Source of the DNA: Mobula hypostoma
Lineage: Eukaryota
Assembly (NCBI RefSeq): GCF_963921235.1
Contig: NC_086097.1
Span: forward strand, 52,578,001-52,642,000
Direction of reading: 5' to 3'
DNA length: 64,000 bases
Shown here: piece after piece, positions 3,785 to 58,217 of the stretch
How positions within the stretch are numbered: position 1 is the first letter of the stretch
Layout of the letters: each line of letters begins with the position of its first letter
The notes under the pieces: model-generated
Told to the model about the DNA's origin: nothing
The model's input: the letters and a program-made list of their open reading frames with translations, nothing else
Database searches by the model: none
Made by a program: the position numbers and the translations under genes

Positions 3785-5314
3785 ATTGCAGAGAATTTCA
3801 TGTGATGTAGACAGATGGTCATCATTGTATCTGTCAATGTTGGGAAAAGTAAATGCTTCCAAAAGTTAATTATCTGTTCCAGTTGTTACCAGTTCAAATC
3901 CCATTAACATATGTTAAGCAATTTGATAAAATAATTAAGTCTTTTATTTGGAATGGTAAACGCCCATGCTTAAACTTTAACAGATTACAATTGCCAGTTG
4001 AAAGGGTAGGTGGGGGCTTAGGTTTGCCAAAGTTAATATACTATTACTATGCCTTTACTCTTAAGCATTTAGCACATTGATCCCTCCCTCCGGAGAGAGC
4101 GCCTCCTTGGTATAGTATTGAGTGTTCTGCTCTTCCTCCCATCCCTCCATTACAATGTTTGTCCATCAAGTTACCTCCTGAGGCAAGGTCTCACCCAATC
4201 ATATCGCATATGCATTTGTTCTGGAATAAACTAGCCAGATTATTTAAACTTAATCCATTTTTGAATGAAGCCTCAAGTATCTGGATGAATCCAAAGTTGT
4301 GTATTGATAAGTCCCCTTTCTTCTGGAGGGAATGGCAAGGGAAAGGTATAATTAAATTGAGAGATCTTTGTAATGGTGATAGTTTAAAATCTTTTAATCA
4401 ATTAACCCAACAGTACGACATCTCTAGGTCACAATTTTGGAGATATCTTCAACTGCGTTATTTGCTACATACAGCTTTTGGTTCTACACAGCAACCTCCA
4501 CAAGTTGCTACGATACCGTCTACTGTATTGGCTGTATATGGTCAAAGTCACGAAGCCTCAACTTATAATTCAGCTTTAACACAAATCTCCGGGGACAAAT
4601 TTCTGTTTGGTTTTAAAAAAGCATGGGAAAAAGACTTGAGTGTGACTTTTGAGACAAGGGAGTGGGACAAAATTTGCAAAAATGTCAAAACAATGTCAAG
4701 AGACCTGAGGGTGCGCCTTATTCAGTTTAAGATTCTACATCGCTTTTATTGGACTCCAGCATGGTTACATAGATTAGGGTTGAAAAGTATCCCTGAATGC
4801 TGGTGCTCTGAGGCGGATAAAGGGGACTTAGTGCATGCTCTCTGGTCCTGTCTCAGAATTCAAGAATTTTGGATTATGATACGTAAGTATATTGGTGAAG
4901 TTTCAGGTATTTCCTTTCTGTCCTAGACTTTTTGTCTTGGGGGACACACTTGGGTTACTTGGGGATAAACACTCTCAAAATTGGATCCAGATAAGTGTAA
5001 TAGTAGGAAGACAAATTATACTTAGAGGATGGAGGGACTTGGGGGGACCATCATTTCAGGAGTGGGCCACAGAAATAGCCAAAGAATGCATGTCTTACAA
5101 ACAGTTTGATAGATTGGACATCTATACACAAAAAGGGGGCAAATATTTAGGTTTCCTGGGGGGAAATAGTGGTGAATGTGTGATGAAACATATTGCTGAG
5201 TGGCAGCCTTTTATGTTACTAGAGGTCTAAATAGACACACATGGTTATTAAGCAACATACATCAAAGTTGCTGGTGAACGCAGCAGGCCAAGCAGCATCT
5301 ATAGGAAGAGGCGC

Positions 5315-5350
5315 AGTCGACGTTTCAGGCCGAGACCCTTCGTCAGGACT
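5315..5350 (-). ncRNA. Minimal type I hammerhead ribozyme
   Basis: Minus strand reads AGUC-CUGACGA-AGG(GUCUCGG)CCU-GAAAC-GUC-GACU: intact CUGANGA/GAAA core, helix I AGUC/GACU, palindromic ACGU helix III. Confidence 0.85.
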
Positions 5351-5648
5351 AACTGAAGGAAGAGTGAGTAAGGGATTTGAAAGCTGGAGGGGGAGGGGGA
5401 GATGCAAAATGATAGGAGAAGACAGGAGGGGGAGGGATAGAGCCGAGAGCTGGACAGGTGATAGGCAAAAGGGGATACGAGAGGATCATGGGACAGGAGG
5501 TCCGGGAAGAAAGACGGGGGGGGGAGGGGGTGACCCAGAGGATGGGCAAGAGGTATATTCAGAGGGACAGAGGGAGAAAAAGGAGAGTGAGAGAAAGAAT
5601 GTGTGCATAAAAATGAGTCACAGCTGGGGTACGAGGGGGAGGTGGGGC

Positions 5649-6633
5649 CTAGCGGAAGTTAGAGAAGTCAATGTTCATGCCATCAGGTTGGAGGCTACCC
5701 AGACGGAATATAAGGTGTTGTTCCTCCAACCTGAGTGTGGCTTCATCTTTACAGTAGAGGAGGCCGTGGATAGACATGTCAGAATGGGAATGGGATGTGG
5801 AATTAAAATGTGTGGCCACTGGGAGATCCTGCTTTCTCTGGCGGACAGAGCGTAGATGTTCAGCAAAGCGGTCTCCCAGTCTGCGTCGGGTCTCACCAAT
5901 ATATAAAAGGCCACATCGGGAGCACCGGACGCAGTATATCACCCCAGTCGACTCACAGGTGAAGTGATGCCTCACCTGGAAGGACTGTTTGGGGCCCTGA
6001 ATGGTGGTAAGGGAGGAAGTGTAAGGGCATGTGTAGCACTTGTTCCGCTTACACGGATAAGTGCCAGGAGGGAGATCAGTGGGGAGGGATGGGGGGGACG
6101 AATGGACAAGGGAGTTGTGTAGGGAGCGATCCCTGCGGAATGCAGAGAGAGGGGGGGAGGGAAAGATGTGCTTAGTGGTGGGATCCCGTTGGAGGTGGCG
6201 GAAGTTACGGAGAATAATATGTTGGACCCGGAGGCTGGTGGGGTGGTAGGTGAGGACCAGGGGAACCCTATTCCTAGTGGGGTGGTGGGAGGATGGAGTG
6301 AGAGCAGATGTACGTGAAATGGGGGAGATGCGTTTAAGAGCAGAGTTGATAGTGGAGGAAGGGAAGCCCCTTTCTTTAAAAAATGAAGACAGCTCCCTCG
6401 TCCTAGAATGAAAAGCCTCATCCTGAGAGCAGATGCGGCGGAGACAGAGGAATTGCGAGAAGGGGATGGCGTTTTTGCAAGAGACAGGGTGAGAAGAGGA
6501 ATAGTCCAGATAGCTGTGAGAGTCAGTAGGCTTATAGTAGACATCAGTGGATAAGCTGTCTCCAGAGACAGAGACAGAAAGATCTAGAAAGGGGAGGGAG
6601 GTGTCGGAAATGGACCAGGTAAACTTGAGGGCA
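5649..6633 (-). pseudogene. 5'-truncated PLE ORF: RT thumb, Cys-rich linker and GIY-YIG endonuclease
   Basis: Open frame with LPFLDL, YYKPTDSHSYL, CKRNKCYTC and VIYCVRCSRCGLLYIGET; lacks the RT catalytic core. Confidence 0.9.
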
Positions 6634-7161
6634 TGGGAGACCGCTTTGCTGAACATCTACGCTCTGTCCGCCAGAGAAAGCAGGATCTCCCAGTGGCCAC
6701 ACATTTTAATTCCACATCCCATTCCCATTCTGACATGTCTATCCACGGCCTCCTCTACTGTAAAGATGAAGCCACACTCAGGTTGGAGGAACAACACCTT
6801 ATATTCCGTCTGGGTAGCCTCCAACCTGATGGCATGAACATTGACTTCTCTAACTTCCGCTAGGCCCCACCTCCCCCTCGTACCCCAGCTGTGACTCATT
6901 TTTATGCACACATTCTTTCTCTCACTCTCCTTTTTCTCCCTCTGTCCCTCTGAATATACCTCTTGCCCATCCTCTGGGTCACCCCCTCCCCCCCCCGTCT
7001 TTCTTCCCGGACCCCCTGTCCCATTATCCTCTCGTATCCCCTTTTGCCTATCACCTGTCCAGCTCTCGGCTCTATCCCTCCCCCTCCTGTCTTCTCCTAT
7101 CATTTTGCATCTCCCCCTCCCCCTGCAGCTTTCAAATCCCTTACTCACTCTTCCTTCAGTT

Positions 7162-7197
7162 AGTCCTGACGAAGGGTCTCGGCCTGAAACGTCGACT
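7162..7197 (+). ncRNA. Minimal type I hammerhead ribozyme
   Basis: AGTCCTGACGAAGGGTCTCGGCCTGAAACGTCGACT; predicted cleavage after GUC (C7193). Confidence 0.85.
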
Positions 7198-7260
7198 GCA
7201 CCTCTTCCTATAGATGCTGCTTGGCCTGCTGCGTTCACCAGCAACTTTGATGTATGTTGC

Positions 7261-7700
7261 TATACTTTCCTTTCTTCTGCCTCCTTCCCTTCTTAAAGAG
7301 TGGAGTGACATTTTCAGTTTTCCAGTTCTCCAGAACCATTCAATAATCTAGTAATTCTTGAAAGGTCAGATCTACCTGCATACTGAACTCCACCATGATT
7401 ATTGCAACTTTGCCCTTTTTAACATACTTTTTCTCTCTCCCATTTAATTTGTAGTCCACATCCTGGCTACTGTTCACAGGCCTGTATACAACTCCCATCA
7501 AGGTCTTCTTACCTTTGCAGTTCATTAACTCTATCCCCAAGGATTCTATATCCTCTGTTACCTCTTTCTAAGGATCTGAGTTCATTTTCTACCAACAGAG
7601 CCTTGCTACCCCTTTGTCTACCTGCCTGTCCTTTCAATGCAATGTGTATCCGTGGATTTTAAGCTTACAACTATGATTTTCTTTCAGCCACAACTCAGAG
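7261..7700 (-). mobile_element. Degenerate CR1 LINE fragment (endonuclease and start of RT, internally deleted)
   Basis: Minus-strand ELMNCKGKKTLMGVVYRP and WKTENVTPLFKKG. Confidence 0.75.
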
Positions 7701-12927: not shown

Positions 12928-13374
12928 ATGTGTGTATGATTTTTTAAAAATTTAATGAAGGAAATAATTATGTTAGCATTGAGAATATTTATGTTCATCA
13001 GGATCTAAGGATTCAATAAATGTACATTTCTGAAAGAATATTCTGATAAAGTGGGCAATCCATAGAGTCATACAGCATGGAAGCAGATCCTTCAGTAGAT
13101 CAAGTACCCATATACACAACCTCATTTTATTCTCCGATATTTCACAGATAAAATTCCATAATGCTGAATTTATGTATTCAGTTTCCTCTATCAGTTTTTT
13201 TTCTACAGCTACCAGATGAACATGGAAGTTTGTATTTACTTTTATTAAAACTCCTGGACATAAATCATTACTTATCAAGTATCAAAGTAAAAGCAGCTGT
13301 TTACTGCAACGTGGAACCGATACAATGCATACTATGTTCTGGGCTGTATCCAGACTCTGATTGAGAAATCATTA

Positions 13375-13568
13375 ACAACAGGAATTCTGCAGATGCTGGA
13401 AATTCAAGCAACACACATCAAAGTTGCTGGTGAACGCAGCAGGCCAAGCAGCATCTGTAGGAAGAGGTGCAGTCGACGTTCCCGACGAAGGGTCTCGGCC
13501 TGAAACGTCGACTGCACCTCTTCCTACAGATGCTGCTTGGCCTGCTGCGTTCACCAGCAACTTTGATG
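13375..13568. mobile_element. Miniature tail-out inverted PLE dimer (194 bp)
   Basis: Left arm 13375-13480 and right arm 13481-13568 are inverted PLE 3' ends; 13-bp TSD TGAGAAATCATTA at 13362-13374 and 13569-13581. Confidence 0.93.
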
Positions 13569-13748
13569 TGAGAAATCATTAGCTGCTTATTACATGATGT
13601 GGAATCTCTTCCACACAGAGAATATGGGGTTGAAGTCTGATTGTACCGAGGGACAGTAGCCATTCATTAACACCTGCTGCTACTCTTTTGCTGACAAATA
13701 TCATGTTTTACTTTGCTTATCTTTATGATAAGGTAAGTATAGATATCA

Positions 13749-18493: not shown

Positions 18494-20026
18494 CATCATG
18501 CGTGATGAGATTAGTGTGGTGGTAGGGAGCTCAGTAGTCTCACGGGCTTCTCCTCATCCTAACAGTAACATATCCTGATGTGTCCACCTGAAGTCAACAA
18601 CCAGCTCTTTGGTTTCACGGAGGATGAGTGAGAGGCTATTGCTGCAACGCCGCCCAACCAGGTGTCCTACCTCTCTTCGAAAGGCTGACTCATTTCCACC
18701 TGCCATTCATCGACACAACGGGAGTGTTTTCGGTGAATTTGAAGCCTGGGGTGCTGTGCTCAGCCACAGAGTCGTGTGTATAGAGAGCAGAGCAGGGGAC
18801 TAAGCACACAGTCATGAGGTACATTGGTGGTGATGTTTAGTGAGAAGGTGATACAATCAGCCCTCACTGATTGAAGTCGGCCAATAAGGATGCTGCAGAG
18901 GGAGGCAGGAGGCACAGGTCTTGAAACTTGATGACAGATTTGAATGGGATGACTGTGTTGAGTGCAGAACTGTAGTCAATGAACAGTAGCCTGATGTATG
19001 AGTTCCTGTTGTCCAGAAGATCCAGAGCAGGGGGAAGGACCTGAGAGATCACACCTGCTATTGACCTGTTGTGGAGGTAGGCAAATCACAGCAGAACCAG
19101 ATAATCTCTGAGATAGGAGTTGATTTGTGCCATATCACGCTCTCAAAGAACTTCATTATGGTTGGTTGTTCTGCACAAATCTCTATTATTCAGCCAGGTA
19201 CACCATCTGGACCAGACGCCTTTCACGGATTCACACTCCTGTAGGATGTCCTGACCCTGATGTAAGCCTCAGAGACAGAAATTGCAGGCTCACCTGAAGA
19301 TATGGGGCTCATGTGGGCATGTTACATGGCAGTGTGCTCAGTCACAGTGGACTCTCCAGATCCAAACACAGATGTAATTTTCTGTCCTTTGCCTGTTTTT
19401 GTAATTGCAAGACACTGCTGGATACTGAGAACATCAAATGGTGCAGGACTGTCCCTCTGGTGAGCTGCCAATGGCTGTTGAGCTGGACTTGTTAAGTACC
19501 ATGTTGCTGCCGACTGCAGCCATCCAGGGAGGAGAGCGCCAGAGGCTGTGCACGGAGACGGCGCACTATCCAATAAACGGTGCAAAAGATCTTCTTGGAC
19601 ATTTTTCTTGTGGTTGCAAGATCCTATTCGACGTTGGCAATGGAGAATACTGCAAGCCCGGTTCACCATTTCATTGATGAGGCCGACAACAGATGGGGGG
19701 GGGGGGCGGGAAGTGGCTACATGGCCTCAGTTATTGCATGGATCAGGCCCGCGTGCCGCCAGGTCGACTACTGCATCTGCCCAGGGGAGGAGACGTCGCT
19801 GGTGGTGTGGGAGAGAGCTGGCTCCTCTCACTGGTGCTGCCCCCCAGTGTCTACTCAGTGGAAAATAAGCTGGATTGCATTCGTCTGCGACTGCACTGGC
19901 ATATGACGAGGACTGCTATGTGCATGTTCTTGTAGAAACGTTTCTCCAGGACAACATCTCATGCACCATCAGTCTACAGGCCATGACACTGATGGACCTA
20001 GGCTGTATTTTTTTATTTTGTGACTG

Positions 20027-20313
20027 TGTAGCGATGTGCTACACACAGAGCTAGAAATAATGACACACAGTCTGTAAGTTGCACTCGGGACTAGTTTAAT
20101 CAATCTTCACGGCGCTGGCTTTTACGCAGTTCCGTTCCTGCCCTCTCCGGGTGGAAATGACATCAGAGGTGCATTACAAAAGTCTCTTCCCGTGCGCAGG
20201 CTTTCTCCCCTTGCTGGTGAAGAAGGCCCAGCGCCATTTTGGGGCTGGCCTCTCTGCCGACACGTGCGCCATTTTGTGAGCTGGTTCGCCTGTGTAGAAA
20301 GTGGGTCACCACA
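20027..20313 (-). repeat. Gypsy 3' LTR
   Basis: 287-bp direct repeat of 24091-24378; preceded on the minus strand by a G-rich PPT-like tract (~20317-20330). Confidence 0.95.
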
Positions 20314-23300
20314 TAACACCCCCCAGAACCGGCGATACACCTCCCAATGTCCACAGTCTGGATTGGTCTCTGTTTGGGCGGTCTGCCTCTGCGCCGCGGT
20401 GCCTGAACCTCGACCGGCTGCACCAAGTCCACATGTGCCAGTTTGAGTCGGTCCGCTGTGAAAACCTCCTCTCTCCCCCCAGTGCCCAGAACGTACGTGG
20501 ACCCATTGTTCCCGATCACCTTGAACGGCCCCTCGTACAGCCGCTGTAGCGGTGCCCACTCTGCACCCCTTCACACAAATACAAACTTACATTTCTTCAG
20601 GTCTTTGGGTACGCAGGTCGGGCTCTGTCCATGCTGTGAAGTAGGTACGGGGGCCAGGTTGCCGAGCCTCTCACGTAGTCTGTCCAGGACTGCTGCGGGT
20701 TCTTCCTCTTGCCCCCTTGGGGCTAGTATGAACTCTCCTGGGACAACCAGGGGTGCGCCGTACACCAGCTCGGCCGACGAGGTGTGCAGGTCCTCTTTGG
20801 GCGCTGTGCGGATTCCAAGCAGGACCCAGGGAAGCTCGTCCACCCAGTTAGGCCCTTTCAGGCGGGCCATGAGAATTGACTTCAGGTGACGGTGGAAGCG
20901 TTCCACTAGTCCGTTCGACTGTGGGTGGTAGGCAGTTGTGTGGCGTAGCTGCGTTCCCAACAGGCTGGCCACAGCCGACCACAGGCTGGAGGTGAACTGG
21001 GCGCCTCTGTCAGAGGTAATGTGGGCCGATACCCCGAAGCGGGCTACGCAGGTTGCAATCAGTGCTCGGGCACAGGACTTGGCGGTGGTGTCGGTGAGTG
21101 GGACCGCCTCTGGCCATCTCGTGAACCAGTCTACCATAGTTAGGAGGTACCACGCTCCTCGCGACACTGGCAGGGGACCCACGATATCCACATGAATGTG
21201 GTCGAACCTCCAGCAGGGCTTTGGTGTGCCGCTGCACCTTGGCTGTTTGGCACTGCGTGCACGTTTTGGCCCATTTGCTGACCTGTTTGCGAAGTCTGTG
21301 CCACACGAACTTGCTGGAGACCATCTGGACGGTTGTCCTGATAGATGGGTGCGCCAAGCCGTGTATGGAGTTGAAAACTCGCCGCCGCCAGGCTGCCGGG
21401 ACGATGGGGCGAGGTTGGCCGGTAGCCATGTCACACAGGAGGGTCCTCTCACCTGGGCCTGCGAGGAAGTCTTGCAGCTACAAACCCGAGACTGCGGTCC
21501 TGTAGCTGGGCATCTCATCGTCTGCCTGCTGCATCTCCGCCAGTGCTGCATAGTCCACCCCCGGGACAGGGCCTGGACAGCTGGTCTGGAGAGTGCGTCC
21601 GCCACAACACTGTCCTTTCCCGAGACATGCTGGATGCCCGTCGTGTACTTGGAGATGTAGGACACATGTCGCAGCTGGTGGGCCAACCAGGGATCAGACA
21701 CCTTCGTGAACGTGAAGGTCAACAGTTTGTGGTCCGTGAATGCGGTGAATGGCCTGCCTTCTAAGAAATACCTGAAATGCCGGATTGCCAGATATAGTGC
21801 CAACAGCTCCCGGTTGAAGGCACTGTACTTGAGTTCGGGTGACCGTAGGTGCCTGCTGAAGAACGCCAGGAGTTGCCAGCGCCCCTTGATGAGTTGCTCC
21901 AGCACCCCACTGACTGCTGTGTTGGATGCGTCCAATGTGAGGGCGGTTGGAACGTCTGTTCTGGGGTGCACTAGCATCGCGGCATCTGCCAAGGCTTCCT
22001 TGGCTTTAACGAAAGCGGCCGTGGCCTCTTCGTCCCAGGTAATGTCCTTGCCTTTACCCGACATCAGAGTGAACAAAGGGCACATGATATGGGCTGCTGA
22101 GGGGAGGAAGTGGTGGTAGAAGTTCACCATACCAACAAACTCCTGCAGGCCTTTGACTGTGTTGGACTGGGCAAAGTGGCAGATCGCGTCTACCTTGGCG
22201 GGCAGAGGTGTTGCCCCGTCTTTGGTAATCCTGTGGCCCAGGAAGTCGATGGTGTCGATTCCAAACTGTCATTTGGCCGGGTTGATCGTGAGGCTGAAAT
22301 CACTCAGGCGGGAGTAGAGCTGACGGAGGTGGGACAGATGCTCCTGATGACTACTGCTGGCTATGAGGATGTCGTCCAAATAGATGAACGCAAAGTCCAG
22401 ATCGCGTCCCACCACATTCATTAGCCGCTGGAACATCTGTGCGGCATTCTCCAGGCCGAACGGCATTCGGAGGAATTCGAACAGGCCGAACGGGGTGATG
22501 AGTGCGGTTTTGGGGATGTCTTCAGGGTGTACCGGGATTTGATGGTATCCCCGGACGAGGTCTATTTTGGAAAAGACACTTGCCCCGTGCAGGTTTACTG
22601 CAAAGTCCTGTATCTGCGGCACGGAGTAGCAGTCTGGAGTTGTATCCTCGTTCAGTCTGCGGTAGTCGCTGCATGGTCTCCAGCCCCTGGCTGCTTTGGT
22701 CACCATGTGCAGGGGGGAGGCCCATGGGCTGTCCGACCGCCGTAAGATCCCCAATTCCTCCATCCTCTTGAACTCCTCCTTCGCCAGGCAGAGCTCGTCC
22801 GGGGGGAGCCTTTGTGCACGGGCGTGGAGGGGTGGTCCCTGGGTCGGAATGTGGTGCTGTACTCCGTGTCTGGGCATGGCTGCTGTGAACTGCGGTGCCA
22901 GAACCGATGGAAAGTCCGCCAGGATTCTGGTGAATTCTTTGTCAGACAGCGTGATGGAGTCCAGGTGTGGGGCCGGCAACTTGGCTTCACCCAGAGAGAA
23001 CATCTGGAAAGTCTTGGCATGGACCAGTCTTTTCCCTTGCAAGTCGACCAGCAGGCTGTGAGCTCACAAGAAGTCCGCCTCCAGGAGTGGATGGGCCACG
23101 GCGGCCAGTGTGAAGTCCCATGTGAACCGGCTGGCGCCGAACTGCAGCTGCACTGTGCGGGTGCCGTAGGTCTGTATCGTACTGCCATTTGCGGCCCTCA
23201 GGGTGGGTCCCAGCTCCCTGTTGTGGGTGTCGTACCCCATCAGGGGTAAGACACTGATTTCCGCTCCGGTGTTGACCAAGAAGCGGCGTCCCGACTGTTT

Positions 23301-24075
23301 GTCCCAGATGTACAAGAGGCTGTCCTGGTGGCCAGCTGCCGTAGCCATTAGCGGCGGCTGGCCCTGGCGTTTTCTGGGAACTTGCAGGGCGGGCGACAAC
23401 GGCGGGCTTCTGTGCCCCACCGCTGGTGGTAGGAACACCACTGTTCATTGGCCTCCTCACTCCTGCCTCTGGGTTGTGTGCGGTCCATTGCCGGGCCTGG
23501 TCTGGCCTGCTGTTAGGCGCGTGGCTTGGTAATCTGTCCAATGGACACCCTGCTCTCCCTCTTGGCTTTCCACAGCACGTCTGCCCAGGCCGCCACCTTC
23601 CGGGGGTCACTGAAATCTGCGTCGGCCAGCAGCTGATGTATGTCCTCGGGCAGTTGCTCTAGGAAAGCCTGTTCAAACATGAAGCAGGGCTTGTGTCCTT
23701 CAGCCAGAGCCAGCATCTCGTTCATTAATGCTGACGGCGGCCTGTCTCCCAAACTGTCCAGGTGCAGCAAGTGGGCACCTCACTCACGCCGTGAGAGGCT
23801 AAAGGTCCCTATGGGCAGCGCTTTGAATGCCGCATATTTGCCTTCGGTGGGGGTGACTGTATGAAATCCTCAACCTGGGCGGTTGTCTCCCGGTCAAGGG
23901 AGCTCACCACATAATAGTAACGCATGGAATCAGAAGATATCTGCCAAATCTGGAACTGGGCATCTGCTTGGTCAAACCACACGCGTGGTTGCTGCGTCCA
24001 GAAAGTTGGCAGTTTTAGTGAAACTGCGTGAACAGATGAAGAGTCGATCATCTTTGGTCCAAATCCCGTTTGGAC

Positions 24076-25380: not shown

Positions 25381-26110
25381 AGATAGGGTATATACTGTAG
25401 TCAAACTCCTTCCCCCATGGTAGGGGTTATAACAAGCTGAAGATTCAAGATGAGAGAAAGCAGATATGAATGGGATCTGAGGGGGAAGTTTTTGCAATTC
25501 AGAAATTAGTTGATATGTGGAATGAAACCAAAGGATGTGAAGTATGCAGATGCAATAACTCCACTTAGGGGACACCTAGACAGACACTTAAAAAGGCATA
25601 GAAAGTCCTGATCTAATGCAGGCAAATGGGATGAGCATAAGTGTTGGCAAGGACATGGTGGGCCATTTCTGTAATGTACAATTTGAAACAGGTCATGGAG
25701 TTTTAAAATTAATGATTTGAGAGGATGGAAGCAATAGATGGATAACATTGAACAACACTGAGAAAGTTGGACCTTGGGACAATGAAGGAAAACTATATAT
25801 AAAATATTACAAGAAATATTTAGCAAACCATCTGTTAAGTAAGGGAGCTCAACTCAAGATCAACTCATCAAAGCTGGATTTGAAATAACAGTGGCGAGAT
25901 CTATAGATAGAAAAGCAGTTTCTCAGAGCATTGACAAGAGCCACAAATGGTAGCTTTAATTTACTAATATTGTAATGTTAGAAAAAAAACATAGAAGATC
26001 CTGATTAAACGCAAACAACAGGAATTCTGCAGATGCTGGAAATTCAAGCAACATACATCAAAGTTGCTGGTGAACGCAGCAGGCCAAGCAGCATCTATAG
26101 GAAGAGGCGC

Positions 26111-26146
26111 AGTCGACGTTACAGGCCGAGACCCTTCGTCAGGACT
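26111..26146 (-). ncRNA. Hammerhead ribozyme with a core mutation (GAAA to GUAA), probably inactive
   Basis: Same motif as the other copies, but plus-strand A at 26121 replaces T. Confidence 0.7.
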
Positions 26147-26443
26147 AACTGAAGGAAGAGTGAGTAAGGGATTTGAAAGCTGGAGGGGGAGGGGGAGATG
26201 CAAAATGATAGGAGAAGACAGGAGGGGGAGGGATAGAGCCGAGAGCTGGACAGGTGATAGGCAAAAGGGGATACGAGAGGATCATGGGACAGGAGGTCCG
26301 GGAAGAAAGACGGGGGGGTGTGGGGTGACCCAGAGGATGGGCAAGAGGTATATTCAGAGGGACAGAGGGAGAAAAAGGAGAGTGAGAGAAAGAATGTGTG
26401 CATAAAAATGAGTAACAGCTGGGGTACGAGGGGGAGGTGGGGC

Positions 26444-27346
26444 CTAGCGGAAGTTAGAGAAGTCAATATTCATGCCATCAGGTTGGAGGCTACCCAGACG
26501 GAATATAAGGTGTTGTTCCTCCAACCTGAGTGTGGCTTCATCTTTACAGTAGAGGAGGCCGTGGATAGACATGTCAGAATGGGAATGGGATGTGGAATTA
26601 AAATGTGTGGCCACTGGGAGATCCTGCTTTCTCTGGCGGACAGAGCGTAGATGTTCAGCAAAGCGGTCTCCCAGTCTGCGTTGGGTCTCACCAATATATA
26701 AAAGGCCGCATCGGGAGCACCGGACGCAGTATATCACCCCAGTCGACTCACAGGTGAAGTGATGCCTCACCTGGAAGGACTGTTTGGGGCCCTGAATGGT
26801 GGTAAGGGAGGAAGTGTAAGGGCATGTGTAGCACTTGTTCCGCTTACACGGATAAGTGCCAGGAGGGAGATCAGTGGGGAGGGATGGGGGGGACGAATGG
26901 ACAAGGGAGTTGTGTAGGGAGCGATCCCTGCGGAATGCAGAGAGAGGGGGGGAGGGAAAGATGTGCTTAGTGGTGGGATCCCGTTGGAGGTGGCGGAAGT
27001 TACGGAGAATAATATGCTGGACCCGGAGGCTGGTGGGGTGGTAGGTGAGGACCAGGGGAACCCTATTCCTAGTGGGGTGGTGGGAGGATGGAGTGAGAGC
27101 AGATGTACGTGAAATGGAGGAGATGCGTTTAAGAGCAGAGTTGATAGTGGAGGAAGGGAAGCCCCTTTCTTTAAAAAATGAAGACATCTCCCTCGTCCTA
27201 GAATGAAAAGCCTCATCCTGAGAGCAGATGCGGCGGAGACGGAGGAATTGCGAGAAGGGGATGGTGTTTTTGCAAGAGACAGGGTGAGAAGAGGAATAGT
27301 CCAGATAGCTGTGAGAGTCAGTAGGCTTATAGTAGACATCAGTGGA
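26444..27346 (-). pseudogene. 5'-truncated PLE ORF (RT thumb and GIY-YIG)
   Basis: Open frame from STDVYYKPTDSH to MNIDFSNFR. Confidence 0.9.
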
Positions 27347-29077
27347 CAACTCGCGGATACCTCCTCTTATTTACCCCTCGATCGTGACCCCACCAAGGAG
27401 CACCAGGCCATTGTCTCCCACACTATCAACGACTTTATCCGCTCAGGGGATCTCCCATCCACTGCTACCAACCTTATAGTTCCCACACCCCGCACTTCCC
27501 GTTTCTACCTCCTACCCAAGATCCACAAACCTGCCTGTCCTGGCCGACCTATTGTCTCAGCTTGCTCCTGCCCCACCGAACTCGTTTCTGCATACCTCGA
27601 CACTGTTTTATCACCCCTTGTTCAATCCCTTCCGACCTATGTTCGTGACACTTCTCACGCTCTTAAACTTTTCGATGATTTTAAGTTCCCTGGCCCCCAC
27701 CGCTTTATTTTCACCATGGATGTCCAGTCCTTATATACTTCCATCCCCCATCAGGAAGGTCTCAAAGCTCTACGCTTCTTTTTGGATTCCAGACCTAATC
27801 AGTTCCCCTCTACCACCACTCTGCTCCGTCTAGCGGAATTAGTCCTTACTCTTAATAATTTCTCCTTTTGCTCCTCCCATTTCCTCCAAACTAAAGGTGT
27901 AGCTATGGGCACCCGTATGGGTCCTAGCTATGCCTGCCTTTTTGTTGGGTTTGTGGAACAATCTATGTTCCGTGCCTATTCTGGTATCTGTCCCCCACTT
28001 TTCCTTCGCTATATCGACGACTGCATTGGCGCTGCTTCCTGCACGCATGCAGAACTCGTTGACTTTATTAACTTTGCCTCCAACTTTCACCCTGCCCTCA
28101 AATTTACCTGGTCTATTTCCGACACCTCCCTCCCCTTTCTAGATCTTTCTGTCTCTGTCTCTGGAGACAGCTTATCCACTGATGTCTACTATAAGCCTAC
28201 TGACTCTCACAGCTATCTGGACTATTCTTCTTCTCACCCTGTCTCTTGCAAAAACGCCATCCCCTTCTCGCAATTCCTCCGTCTCCACCGCATCTGCTCT
28301 CAGGATGAGGCTTTTCATTCTAGGACGAGGGAGATGTCTTCATTTTTTAAAGAAAGGGGCTTCCCTTCCTCCACTATCAACTCTGCTCTTAAACGCATCT
28401 CCTCCATTTCACGTACATCTGCTCTCACTCCATCCTCCCACCACCCCACTAGGAATAGGGTTCCCCTGGTCCTCACCTACCACCCCACCAGCCTCCGGGT
28501 CCAACATATTATTCTCCGTAACTTCCGCCACCTCCAACGGGATCCCACCACTAAGCACATCTTTCCCTCCCCCCCTCTCTCTGCATTCCGCAGGGATCGC
28601 TCCCTACACAACTCCCTTGTCCATTCGTCCCCCCCATCCCTCCCCACTGATCTCCCTCCTGGCACTTATCCGTGTAAGCGGAACAAGTGCTACACATGCC
28701 CTTACACTTCCTCCCTTACCACCATTCAGGGCCCCAAACAGTCCTTCCAGGTGAGGCAACACTTCACCTGTGAGTCGGCTGGGGTGATATACTGCGTCCG
28801 GTGCTCCCGATGTGGCCTTTTATATATTGGTGAGACCCGACGCAGACTGGGAGACCGCTTTGCTGAACATCTACGCTCTGTCCGCCAGAGAAAGCAGGAT
28901 CTCCCAGTGGCCACACATTTTAATTCCACATCCCATTCCCATTCTGACATGTCTATCCACGGCCTCCTCTACTGTAAAGATGAAGCCACACTCAGGTTGG
29001 AGGAACAACACCTTATATTCCGTCTGGGTAGCCTCCAACCTGATGGCATGAACATTGACTTCTCTAACTTCCGCTAG
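27203..29077 (+). CDS. PLE reverse transcriptase plus GIY-YIG endonuclease ORF (first 48 codons come from the antisense of the left arm)
   Basis: No stops. Motifs FYLLPKIHK, GRPIVS, TMDVQSLYTSI, QTKGVAMGTRMGPSYA, RYIDD, LPFLD, CKRNKCYTC and VIYCVRCSRCGLLYIGET; native N-terminus missing. Confidence 0.85.
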   Translation: MKSLILRADAAETEELREGDGVFARDRVRRGIVQIAVRVSRLIVDISGQLADTSSYLPLDRDPTKEHQAIVSHTINDFIRSGDLPSTATNLIVPTPRTSRFYLLPKIHKPACPGRPIVSACSCPTELVSAYLDTVLSPLVQSLPTYVRDTSHALKLFDDFKFPGPHRFIFTMDVQSLYTSIPHQEGLKALRFFLDSRPNQFPSTTTLLRLAELVLTLNNFSFCSSHFLQTKGVAMGTRMGPSYACLFVGFVEQSMFRAYSGICPPLFLRYIDDCIGAASCTHAELVDFINFASNFHPALKFTWSISDTSLPFLDLSVSVSGDSLSTDVYYKPTDSHSYLDYSSSHPVSCKNAIPFSQFLRLHRICSQDEAFHSRTREMSSFFKERGFPSSTINSALKRISSISRTSALTPSSHHPTRNRVPLVLTYHPTSLRVQHIILRNFRHLQRDPTTKHIFPSPPLSAFRRDRSLHNSLVHSSPPSLPTDLPPGTYPCKRNKCYTCPYTSSLTTIQGPKQSFQVRQHFTCESAGVIYCVRCSRCGLLYIGETRRRLGDRFAEHLRSVRQRKQDLPVATHFNSTSHSHSDMSIHGLLYCKDEATLRLEEQHLIFRLGSLQPDGMNIDFSNFR

Positions 29078-29370
29078 GCCCCACCTCCCCCTCGTACCCC
29101 AGCTGTGACTCATTTTTATGCACACATTCTTTCTCTCACTCTCCTTTTTCTCCCTCTGTCCCTCTGAATATACCTCTTGCCCATCCTTTGGGTCACCCCC
29201 CCCCCGTCTTTCTTCCCGGACCTCCTGTCCCATGATCCTCTCGTATCCCCTTTTGCCTATCACCTGTCCAGCTCTCGGCTCTATCCCTCCCCCTCCTGTC
29301 TTCTCCTATCATTTTGCATCTCCCCCTCCCCCTCCAGCTTTCAAATCCCTTACTCACTCTTCCTTCAGTT

Positions 29371-29406
29371 AGTCCTGACGAAGGGTCTCGGCCTGAAACG
29401 TCGACT
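29371..29406 (+). ncRNA. Minimal type I hammerhead ribozyme
   Basis: AGTCCTGACGAAGGGTCTCGGCCTGAAACGTCGACT; predicted cleavage after C29402. Confidence 0.85.
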
Positions 29407-29709
29407 GCGCCTCTTCCTATAGATGCTGCTTGGCCTGCTGCGTTCACCAGCAACTTTGATGTATGTTGCTTGAAGATCCTGATTAACATTGGTCTATACT
29501 AGAAATATGGACTAGGAAAACTGAGCACCCATAGCTGCTTCCCCATTGTTGGGGTAGAAAGTAAAGAAAGAATTTGTTGCATGGAGAAGCCTCTTTTAAC
29601 CCTACTAAAGGTATGGGGACGTACAGCAGGCTGAAGTAAATTTTATGCCAGTTTTAAAAAGGAATGCTCAGAAGTGTGCAAACTACATTTCACCTCAGCT
29701 TTGGTTGCA

Positions 29710-30110
29710 TTAGAACATGAATAGTACAGCACAGTACAGGGCATTTACCCACAATGTTGCACCATCCTTTCAACCTTCTCTAAGATCAATCTAACCCCCT
29801 TGAACCTGTCTAAAAGTCTCTTAAATGTCCTTAATGCAGGGGTTGGGAACCCCTGCCCTAATGTATCAGCATCCACCGCCAGCCCAGGTAGTACACTCCA
29901 GACAGACACCAATCTGTGTGAAAAAAAACTTCCTCTGACATTCTCCCAATACCAATCAACTTAATATTATCCCCTCCCATAGTTGCTATTGCGCTCCCCC
30001 CGCCCCGTAAAAGACGCTTGCTGTCCACTCTGTCTATATCTCTTATCATGTTATACACCTCTTATGCTCCTAGCTCACTCGGCCTTTCCTCATAAGACAT
30101 CCTCTATAAT
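29710..30110 (-). mobile_element. Old CR1 3' fragment
   Basis: AGTACAGCACAGTACAGG 3'-end motif; minus strand MYNMIRDIDRVDS. Confidence 0.7.
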
Positions 30111-55880: not shown

Positions 55881-57008
55881 GTATCTGATTAGATGCATTA
55901 CAAACACATTTCAATCTATCCGAAACAGTTGCTGTTTTATAAGCACGTAGGAGCAAGGAGGATCCTTTGATTTAATGATATTGGAACTACACTACACAGA
56001 GGATTATTACAGTTTATTGACTTTTTCAACTTCCTCATCAGAGGTGAGATTATCTGTGCATTTAGTCAGTTCATTCTGAAGAAATTAGTGGCATATGCAT
56101 CAGGTACACAGCTGTTCAAAGCTGGACTAGAAAAGCTAGATGGCCAGCAGATGGAAAATCATGTGATGAAGTGTAAAGCAGAAGATGGAATTTACAATTA
56201 AGTTGGCTCAGTTACTGTAAATATCATTGGCAGCAATAAAAGTTGCTGGAGTAGATTTGAGATCCTGTAAACCTATTTTAAAGAGTTTGGAAATAAGTTT
56301 TTTAAAACAAGACCCCAAAAGTAGTCTTTTCCGGATTATTCATGGTGTCACACACCAGGGAGGTTATAGGAACGGGAGAATAGACCAATTGAATACATGT
56401 CAGACAGACTTTGCAAGGGGGAGGGGTATATATTTCTGGGACACTGGAACCAGTTCTGATGAAGGTGGTATCTGTACGAGAGCAAGCAGCTTTCCCCGGG
56501 AAGAACCCAGATTAATGCCCCAGGAACAGTGTTGTCTGGGCTTTCTGGAAAGGGTTGAAACAGAAGCATCTGGGGTCAGGGAAGCAGTACAGAAGGAAAG
56601 TCAAAAGGGGAACTAGGATCGAAACAAAGGACAGGAAGGGCGAAACAAAACTACAAGATAGAGAAATTGAGACAATCTGTTGTATGTAAGCAGACCAAAG
56701 AGCTCAAAGGATGTCAGCTGGCTCTCTAAACCGTTTCAGTCATAAAATGTTTCAAAATACTGATGATCTGAAAAAATGAACAAGGAGATACTGAGACAAT
56801 TAATCATTCTGGTCCATTTGAGAATCCAGTCCCAAAATGATATAGACAACTCTCAACTGGATTAGTAACCTATTCAGATCAATAGGGGTGGTTAATATAC
56901 ATCAGAATTTTGAGCCGTGTCCACAATCCAAGAATAAGTAAAATAGCAACACGCATAAAAGTTGCTGGTGAACGCAGCAGGCCAGGCAGCACCTCTAGGA
57001 AGAGGTAC

Positions 57009-57044
57009 AGTCGACGCTTCGGGCCGAGACCCTTCGTCAGGACT
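57009..57044 (-). ncRNA. Hammerhead ribozyme variant (GAAA to GAAG), probably impaired
   Basis: Minus strand AGUC-CUGACGA-AGGGUCUCGGCCC-GAAGC-GUC-GACU. Confidence 0.65.
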
Positions 57045-58217
57045 AACTGAAAGAAGAAATAGTGAGAGATTTGAAAGTGGGAAAGGGAGGGGGAGAACTG
57101 AAATGATAGGAGAAGACAGGAGAGGGAAGGAATGAAGCTAAGAGCTGGGAAGTTGATTGGCAAAAGGGATATGAGAGGATATGGGACGCCTAGGGAGAAA
57201 AAGGGGGAGGGGGGAAGCCCAAATGATGGGCAAGGAGTATAGTGAGAAGGACAGAAGGAGAAAAAGGAGAGAGAGAAAAATATATATAATAATAAAAGAT
57301 AACTAAATAACGGATGGGGTACGAAGGGGAGGTGGGGCATTAACAGAAGTTAGAGAAGACAATGTTCATGCCATCAGGTTGGAGGCTACTCAGATGGAAT
57401 ATAAAGTGTTGTTCCTCCAACCTGAGTGTGGCTTCATCTTGACAGTAGGGGATAGACATATCAGAATGGGAATGGGACGTGGGATTAAAATGTGTGGCCA
57501 CTGGGATACCCTGCTTTCTCTGGCGGACAGAGCATAGGTGTTCAGTGAAATGGTCTCCCAGCCTGCGTCAGGTCTCGCCAATATATAGAAGGCCGCATTG
57601 GGAGCACCGGACGCAGTATATCACCCCAGCCAATTCACAGGCGAAGTGTTGCCTCACCCGGAAGGACTGTCTGGGGCCCTGAATGGTGATGAGGGAGGAA
57701 GTGTAAGGGCATGTGTAGTACTTGTTCCGCTTACAAGGATAAGTGCCGGGAGGGAGATCGGTGGGGAGGGATGGGGTTATGAATGGACAAGGGAGTCGTG
57801 TGGGGAGCGATCCCTGCGGCTTTCTGCAGAGGGGGCTAAGGGAAAGATGTGTTTAGTGGTGGGATCCTGTTGGAGGTGGCAAAAGTTATGGAGAATTATA
57901 TGTTGGACCCGGAGGCTGGTGGGATGGTAGGTGAAGACAAGGGGAACCCTATTCCTAGTAGGGTGGCGGGAGGATGGAGTGAGAGCAGATGTACGTGAAA
58001 TGGGGGAGATGCGTTTGAGAGCAGAGTTGATAGTGGAGGAAGGGAAGCCCCTTTCTTTAAAAAAAGAGGACATCTCCCTCGTCCTGGATTGAAAAGCCTC
58101 ATCCTGAGAGCAGATGCAGCGGAGCCGAAGGAATTGCGAGAAGGGGGTGGCGTTCTTGCAAGAGACAGGGCGAGAAGAGGAATAGTCCAGGTAGCTGTGA
58201 GAGTCTGTAGGCTTATA

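Follow-up and report, generated by a model that had tools for sequence, protein, structure and literature searches.

The locus described here raises the question of how two copies of one transposable element come to lie head-to-head within a single target-site duplication (TSD). It occupies positions 26009-29471 of a 64,000-nucleotide stretch of the Mobula hypostoma genome (RefSeq assembly GCF_963921235.1, contig NC_086097.1, positions 52,578,001 to 52,642,000), referred to below as the window. The locus is a 3,463-bp near-palindrome composed of two 5'-truncated copies of a Penelope-like element (PLE) with their 3' ends facing out. This insert is probably one integration of a canonical endonuclease-bearing (EN+) PLE in its typical form with an inverted 5'-truncated copy, produced by priming on both target strands.

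Repeat finding identified two pairs of inverted arms, 26307-27349/28172-29214 (1043 nucleotides, 98% complementarity) and 26038-26318/29199-29479 (281 nucleotides, 99%). Element numbering follows the plus-strand copy, with q1 at position 27350 and q2122 at position 29471. A BLAST search with this copy aligned the minus arm (26046-27349) to q823-2122 with 98.7% identity over 1304 bp. Both arms contain q823-2122, an overlap of 1.3 kb. The pair is flanked by an exact 15-bp direct repeat, GAAGATCCTGATTAA, at 25994-26008 and 29472-29486. Repeat finding and BLAST together confirm an earlier reading of the window made from its letters only (the sequence-only reading), which described a 1.3-kb minus copy and a 2.1-kb plus copy, both 5'-truncated, joined tail-out inside one exact 15-bp TSD. 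The stop-to-stop frame 27182-29077 crosses the junction between the arms. The 5' ends of both arms directly follow the pentamer ACAGC (q818-822, at 28167-28171, for one; upstream of 27345 for the other). The pyrimidine-rich stretch before each arm 5' end resembles a splice acceptor, which may be coincidence.

The frame 27350-29074 was compared with Pfam. It matches RVT_1 with an E-value of 2e-5 (24.9 bits, under the curated cut-off of 29.6) and, at residues 478-552 of 575, GIY-YIG with an E-value of 4.6e-4 (20.9 bits, under the curated cut-off of 22.6). At E ≤ 0.001, 2147 of 8000 scored candidates are homologues of the 575-residue frame. PF00078 is found on many of the 120 homologues listed, and the closest named ones are from rays and sharks. 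The homologues of about 800 residues that were scanned contain RVT_1 followed by a C-terminal GIY-YIG domain. In one of these (P0020, 806 residues), RVT_1 lies at 291-479 and GIY-YIG at 708-751, the latter with 25.0 bits and above the cut-off. Judged from its coding sequence, the 26009-29471 pair is composed of truncated copies of a canonical EN+ PLE, because a reverse transcriptase (RT) and, at the C-terminus, a GIY-YIG domain are present in the frame and in its homologues.

Other features of PLE are also present. A tail is found on one side only, with 37 nucleotides at 26009-26045 and 31 nucleotides at 13374-13404 in a smaller pair in the window. Inverted partial copies lie within one TSD of variable length, and 5' truncation is frequent. 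In the 364 kb surveyed below, all 31 copies that retain the 3' end are 5'-truncated relative to the open reading frame (ORF) of about 800 residues. A direct pseudo-long terminal repeat (pLTR) was not seen at the 26009-29471 locus. A hammerhead-like core (CTGACGA ... GAAAC GTC) was read by eye on the plus strand at 29376..29402, about 70 nucleotides from the 3' end. Rfam gave no hammerhead or other family in the whole window at the gathering score or in 29050-29500 at E ≤ 10, beyond a single long non-coding RNA match at E 3.2 in the latter search that is attributed to chance.

Contigs from four public runs were compared with positions 25700-29800. Two runs are probably from the source organism, and two are from one sample of a related organism (organism B). 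One contig from each organism B run (999 and 990 nucleotides in length) connects 25700-25988 with 29473-29795 across 5 intervening letters. Compared with the window, the flanks carry 4 differing letters in 289 and 8 in 323, together with a 13-base insertion. These contigs are the empty site with one TSD copy, an allele that the sequence-only reading had proposed to look for. The dimer pair arrived as one event, because organism B has this empty site and the TSD is exact over 15 bp. Source-organism contigs match both flank-element borders without difference and reach only 22-23 nucleotides into the element, short of the 31 letters required to count as bridging a border. Loose contig ends before 27345 were seen in all four runs, and other copies of the family extend upstream past this position.

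The frequency of such pairs was surveyed in a contiguous 364 kb consisting of the window, 200 kb to its left, and 100 kb to its right, using the two natural arms as queries. The 36 match groups can be sorted into 5 internal fragments without a 3' end, 19 monomers, and 12 minus-then-plus (tail-out) dimers. Dimers make up 12 of the 31 insertions that keep the 3' end. At 85% identity or above there are 11 dimers and 11 monomers, so that dimers are 11 of 22. The tail-out form thus accounts for about half of the young insertions, and calling it the main insertion mode, as had been proposed for the family, overstates it. An exact TSD of 10-15 nucleotides surrounds 9 of the 12 dimers; a tenth has a 9 of 10 match by eye, and two have none. 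The same search applied to random position pairs gave an exact repeat of at least 9 nucleotides in 13 of 3000. TSDs of 9-14 nucleotides are present in 8 of the 12 monomers examined.

Pairing by separate events, meaning two independent abutting insertions or a rearrangement after insertion of a monomer, is extremely improbable. The PLE protein is able to nick the element's own sequence (PMC11167929), and one plus-then-minus pair, its members separated by 98 bp, does seem to consist of two events that differ in age. That pair is the only tail-in arrangement within 200 bp, against 12 tail-out pairs. At 26009-29471 itself, one exact TSD encloses both copies, the organism B site contains neither, and the divergence from other young copies is about the same for the two arms.

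Every outer end in the surveyed dimers is a normal 3' terminus of the family, with or without a tail, and these ends fall into two classes. They lie either at about q2108-2122 (no tail) or 31-37 nucleotides further 3' (tail). A tail is present on 14 of the 19 monomers. It is present on exactly one arm in 11 of the 12 dimers; the remaining dimer has none, and no dimer has two. In the 11 one-tailed dimers, the shorter arm carries the tail 5 times (26009-29471 included) and the longer arm 4 times; in the other 2, the tail is on one of two arms of equal reach. The 5' ends of the arms differ by 24 to more than 1200 nucleotides in 10 of 12 dimers, and in the remaining two the arms reach nearly equally far (q1740/q1743 and q2024/q2024). 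Inner junctions have 0-5 nucleotides of overlap in 7 dimers and a filler of 9-181 nucleotides in 5, one filler being 50 nucleotides of the element itself. No motif common to the 5' truncation points was found in the survey, beyond the ACAGC that precedes both arm ends of the 26009-29471 dimer.

Biochemical work on another PLE provides a frame for these observations. Frangieh et al. 2024 (PMC11167929) reported that the purified protein of Anolis carolinensis Poseidon (PAc) cleaves and extends both target strands in vitro. Its reverse transcription starts at two adjacent internal sites, the genomic tail being the stretch between them, and the protein is predicted to dimerise (PMC11167929). The main text of that paper draws no link between two-strand extension and inverted genomic copies. 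A literature search found no explicit two-strand-priming model of PLE inverted copies, older non-open papers being outside its scope.

In the mechanism proposed here, an RT-EN protein, probably a dimer, would nick the two target strands 9-15 nucleotides apart. From each freed 3'-OH, complementary DNA (cDNA) would be primed at an internal position of the element RNA, with one of two neighboring start sites being used. Use of the proximal site (about q2108-2122) would give a tailless end, and use of the distal site, 31-37 nucleotides further 3', a tailed end. The two cDNAs would extend toward each other and halt at unrelated points. Their 3' ends would be joined by microhomology of a few bases or by filler, after which each would template the second strand of the other. 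Fill-in of the stagger would leave the single TSD. Dimers, the one at 26009-29471 among them, would thus be formed by the joining of two cDNAs.

Two-strand priming fits because 9 of 12 dimers lie in one TSD, the outer ends are the usual 3' termini, and the inner ends are unrelated truncation points. The sequence-only reading had proposed a symmetric mechanism in which both ends of a staggered cut prime reverse transcription. Priming from both ends agrees with the anatomy and with the published biochemistry. Symmetry was not borne out by the tails, which sit on exactly one arm in nearly every dimer. The paired ends of a dimer almost always use different start sites, and two-strand priming fits in an asymmetric form.

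Several observations weigh against two-strand priming as the origin of the 26009-29471 dimer and of the dimers generally. If the arms acquired tails independently at the monomer rate of 14/19, the probability of at least 11 one-tailed dimers among 12 would be 2.3e-4, and in vitro both strands used both PAc start sites alike (PMC11167929). The arms of a dimer are not mutual nearest relatives, and the young copies form a star. For example, the arms of the 5250-7261 dimer differ by 0.64%, and its minus arm differs from the 26009-29471 plus arm by only 0.16%. Because the arms are not each other's closest relatives, sequence cannot show that both came from one RNA. The 5250-7261 dimer also has no tail, and no TSD was found around it. 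The palindrome at 26009-29471 rests on the assembly, since no source-organism read or contig among the runs spans it. Its junction recurs at a twin dimer, described below, that has its own TSD and carries its tail on the long arm. Finally, Arkhipova et al. 2013 (PMC3846280) prefer self-priming on an antisense template, a preference to which palindromic junctions led those authors.

In self-priming, one cDNA folds back and copies itself into an inverted arm. The two dimers with near-equal reach are as expected from such a snap-back, and a short fold-back found at 41 places (described below) resembles a hairpin with a 15-19-nucleotide loop. The arm 5' ends are nonetheless 24 to more than 1200 nucleotides apart in the other ten dimers. 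A self-copy should also run into the target as an inverted, not a direct, duplication. A tail missing from the template also cannot appear on a self-copy. Simple self-priming therefore fails for at least the five dimers with the tail on the shorter arm, and the snap-back explanation is improbable.

A false palindrome created in assembly is more improbable still. Inverted PLE structures are known to trouble assemblies (PMC8557442, PMC3846280), and the lack of a spanning read has been noted. The source-run contigs nevertheless agree with the assembly at both borders, though only 22-23 nucleotides into the element, an identical junction was assembled at two loci with different flanks, and the 12 dimers in 364 kb obey the same rules.

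Recurrence of the junctions was examined with 38-40-mers across nine junctions, searched in the 3.48-Gb genome with up to 3 mismatches. A search of the genome with the last 172 bases of the element gave no matches because its words are too common, which is no sign of rarity. Six of the nine junctions are unique, including the 40-mer of the 5250-7261 dimer, and a predominance of unique junctions is to be expected where every insertion makes its own. The 38-mer of the 26009-29471 junction occurs at exactly 2 places with 0 mismatches. The second place is a dimer 67 kb away, at 92430-95888 in window numbering continued to the right (contig positions 52670430-52673888), with 38 of 38 junction bases identical. 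In a 3436-bp alignment that crosses the junction, positions 26040-29474 are 98.5% identical to the reverse complement of 92463-95894. The flanking sequences of the two loci are unrelated, and the twin has a different TSD, AAAATTTAAT. Viewed from the tailed end, the two loci are distinguished only by which way the central 822 bp is oriented.

No more than one of these two junctions can be the product of random truncation points joined by chance, unless the template sets both ends. With the junction shared, chance joining at 26009-29471 cannot be assumed, and this inner junction may have been inherited or template-determined. It could come from unit copying of an existing dimer (the twin or a lost master), or both loci could derive from one RNA species with fixed ends. 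Such an origin has a real though lesser chance of being correct. It bears on the 26009-29471 locus only, and two-strand priming could still be the general mechanism.

The long alignment through the junction between unrelated flanks, and the match at exactly two places, speak for such an origin. Recombination between the 1.3-kb inverted arms could flip the central 822 bp, the sole difference between the loci. Both arm 5' ends lie directly after ACAGC, and short fold-back junctions do recur, one type at 41 places and another at 3. The base differences point in another direction for unit copying. Arms differ at 12-13 of 1299 positions within a locus and at 16-19 between loci. With the 5250-6554 arm as outgroup, the twin locus arms share 4 derived bases and the 26009-29471 arms share 1, a pattern that would require later gene conversion between arms. 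Only one site groups the arms by type; it is 3 bases from the junction and is explained by the 5-base junction ambiguity. The published in vitro reaction requires RNA extending about 55 nucleotides beyond the distal start site (PMC11167929), a stretch that an inserted copy does not have, and this too counts against such an origin. Further points against it are that the recurring short junctions vary by several bases whereas these two are identical, and that other 5' truncation points share no motif.

Two further sources of the shared junction were considered. Interlocus gene conversion is not favored, as the differences are spread evenly, with 7 in the 832 aligned columns of the central segment. 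An inversion with staggered breaks was rejected as the source of two inverted copies, since each has matching TSDs and the organism B flanks are contiguous.

The small fold-back junction represented at 13461-13499 is found at 41 places on many contigs, with several bases varying at the junction. Its minus arm ends near q2044-2049 and its plus arm starts at q2024-2029. This fold-back reads as a hairpin with a 15-19-nucleotide loop over the hammerhead-like core. Its copies may have formed repeatedly or spread as an amplifying unit. The second small junction type, at 3 places, has arms that abut on the RNA, one consisting of the tail and q2112-2122 and the other of q2025-2113. A small dimer with this junction lies inside a 15-bp TSD at -107652 to -107517, in window numbering continued to the left. 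Many short copies begin at q2021-2027 (window positions 29370-29376), a little upstream of the CTGACGA core, which hints at a preferred 5' end of the RNA there, perhaps a transcription start in the terminal repeat. Fixed RNA ends may explain the recurrent short junctions.

A narrower form of two-strand priming is put forward tentatively. Both cDNAs of a dimer could be made on one RNA by a dimeric RT-EN particle, each start site being used once, one per strand. This is possible but less than probable. It would explain the presence of exactly one tail, the abutting arms of the small dimers, and the recurrent fold-backs with a fixed 15-19-nucleotide gap before the RNA 5' end. If it were true, the genome would hold an in vivo record of coordinated two-strand target-primed reverse transcription that is unresolved in vitro.

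The features of the 26009-29471 insertion and the other copies in the window are listed in Table 1. The sequence-only reading had stated that 3 of 4 well-preserved insertions in the window have the dimer form, which is right. Its small dimer at 13375-13568 holds, as 13374-13480 (minus) and 13480-13569 (plus) with the TSD TGAGAAATCATTA; the minus arm consists of the 31-nucleotide tail (13374-13404) and q2048-2122. For its third site, 5251-7260, the tail-out arrangement stands, and no TSD was found.

Table 1. Coordinates of PLE-related features in the window.
Feature	Position	Strand	Basis or remark
Left TSD copy GAAGATCCTGATTAA	25994..26008	.	Exact direct repeat; single copy at the organism B empty site
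37-nucleotide tail, extra 3'-terminal bases of the minus arm only	26009..26045	-	Missing from the plus arm end
Short arm, 5'-truncated PLE copy, q823-2122	26046..27349	-	98.7% to plus arm; inverted repeats
Head-to-head junction	27345..27349	.	GACAA assignable to both arms, with the short arm matching it at 4 of 5 bases
Long arm, tailless 5'-truncated PLE copy, q1-2122	27350..29471	+	Ends ...GTTGCTT flush against the right TSD
Open frame, C-terminal 575 residues of RT/GIY-YIG polyprotein, no start	27350..29077	+	ORF list, Pfam, homologues
Right TSD copy GAAGATCCTGATTAA	29472..29486	.	Exact direct repeat
Second tail-out dimer: minus arm 5250-6636 (q741-2122), plus arm 6634-7261 (q1499-2121)	5250..7261	.	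3-nucleotide overlap, no tail
Third tail-out dimer, 196 bp: minus arm 13374-13480, plus arm 13480-13569 (q2024-2113)	13362..13581	.	TSD TGAGAAATCATTA
Older monomer, q841-2121, 87% identity, no tail	56945..58217	-	BLAST; no TSD found

Among the surveyed copies, monomer 71006-71319 has the same right flank as the dimer 78288-79714, from which it may derive by segmental duplication. The segments 71006-71354 and 79404-79749 have a common truncation region and right flank (atttct.cagagaataag...). The shared flank looks like a local segmental duplication (spacing of about 8 kb) or insertion into repeated host sequence. Within the window, 20001-24000 is a GC-rich block with a GC content of 0.58, compared to about 0.42 around it.

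The insertion form is textbook PLE and leaves the known picture unchanged. Published work still describes the PLE integration pathway beyond first-strand synthesis as undefined, and a very abundant, recently active family offers many dated footprints of insertion, with a relative's empty site available in the present case. Counts of these footprints add modest in vivo constraints, namely one tail per dimer, no dependence of the tail on arm length, and junctions that are mostly unique. Palindromes of this kind confuse repeat annotation and assembly; once recognized as single PLE events, they are not mistaken for new fold-back elements.

The architecture at 26009-29471 is already known, with the head-to-head copy, the single TSD, and the one-sided tail being standard PLE features. 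In the account of Arkhipova et al. 2013 (PMC3846280), an inverted pLTR next to the PLE unit completes it, with head-to-head as the most frequent arrangement. An adjacent inverted 5'-truncated copy within one TSD is described for PLE insertions in that paper and in Craig et al. 2021 (PMC3846280, PMC8557442). The latter gives a 30-40-bp tail often at only one end and attributes the structures to 'still undefined features' of the transposition cycle (PMC8557442). The present insertions have in common with canonical EN+ PLE insertions (PMC3846280, PMC8557442) the head-to-head copy, one short TSD, heavy 5' truncation, a one-sided tail (31-37 nucleotides here), and an RT followed by GIY-YIG. Unlike those insertions, 26009-29471 has no full-length unit or direct pLTR, and both of its arms are truncated. 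A further difference from canonical EN+ PLEs is the frequency of dimers, about half of the young insertions in the 364 kb.

L1 twin priming also leaves an inverted segment. Its two segments are non-overlapping parts of one RNA, only one of which holds the 3' end; the second target 3' end reportedly primes on the element RNA to give an inverted segment in one TSD, as Ostertag and Kazazian are said to have described in 2001. The arms at 26009-29471 differ from this pattern, in that both hold the 3' end and they overlap by 1.3 kb. The small dimer at -107652 to -107517 has abutting arms like those of L1 twin priming. The hammerhead-type core CTGANGA ... GAAA ... GTC has a by-eye likeness about 70 nucleotides from the 3' end of each arm.

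With PAc the family shares the cutting and extension of both strands, as proposed here, and two adjacent start sites spaced by the tail (PMC11167929). PAc targets are AT-rich (PMC11167929), and several TSDs here contain ATT. Unlike the in vitro products of PAc (PMC11167929), the arms of the dimers here almost always differ, with one tailed and one tailless. The proposed mechanism is a reasonable reading to which the published biochemistry already points.

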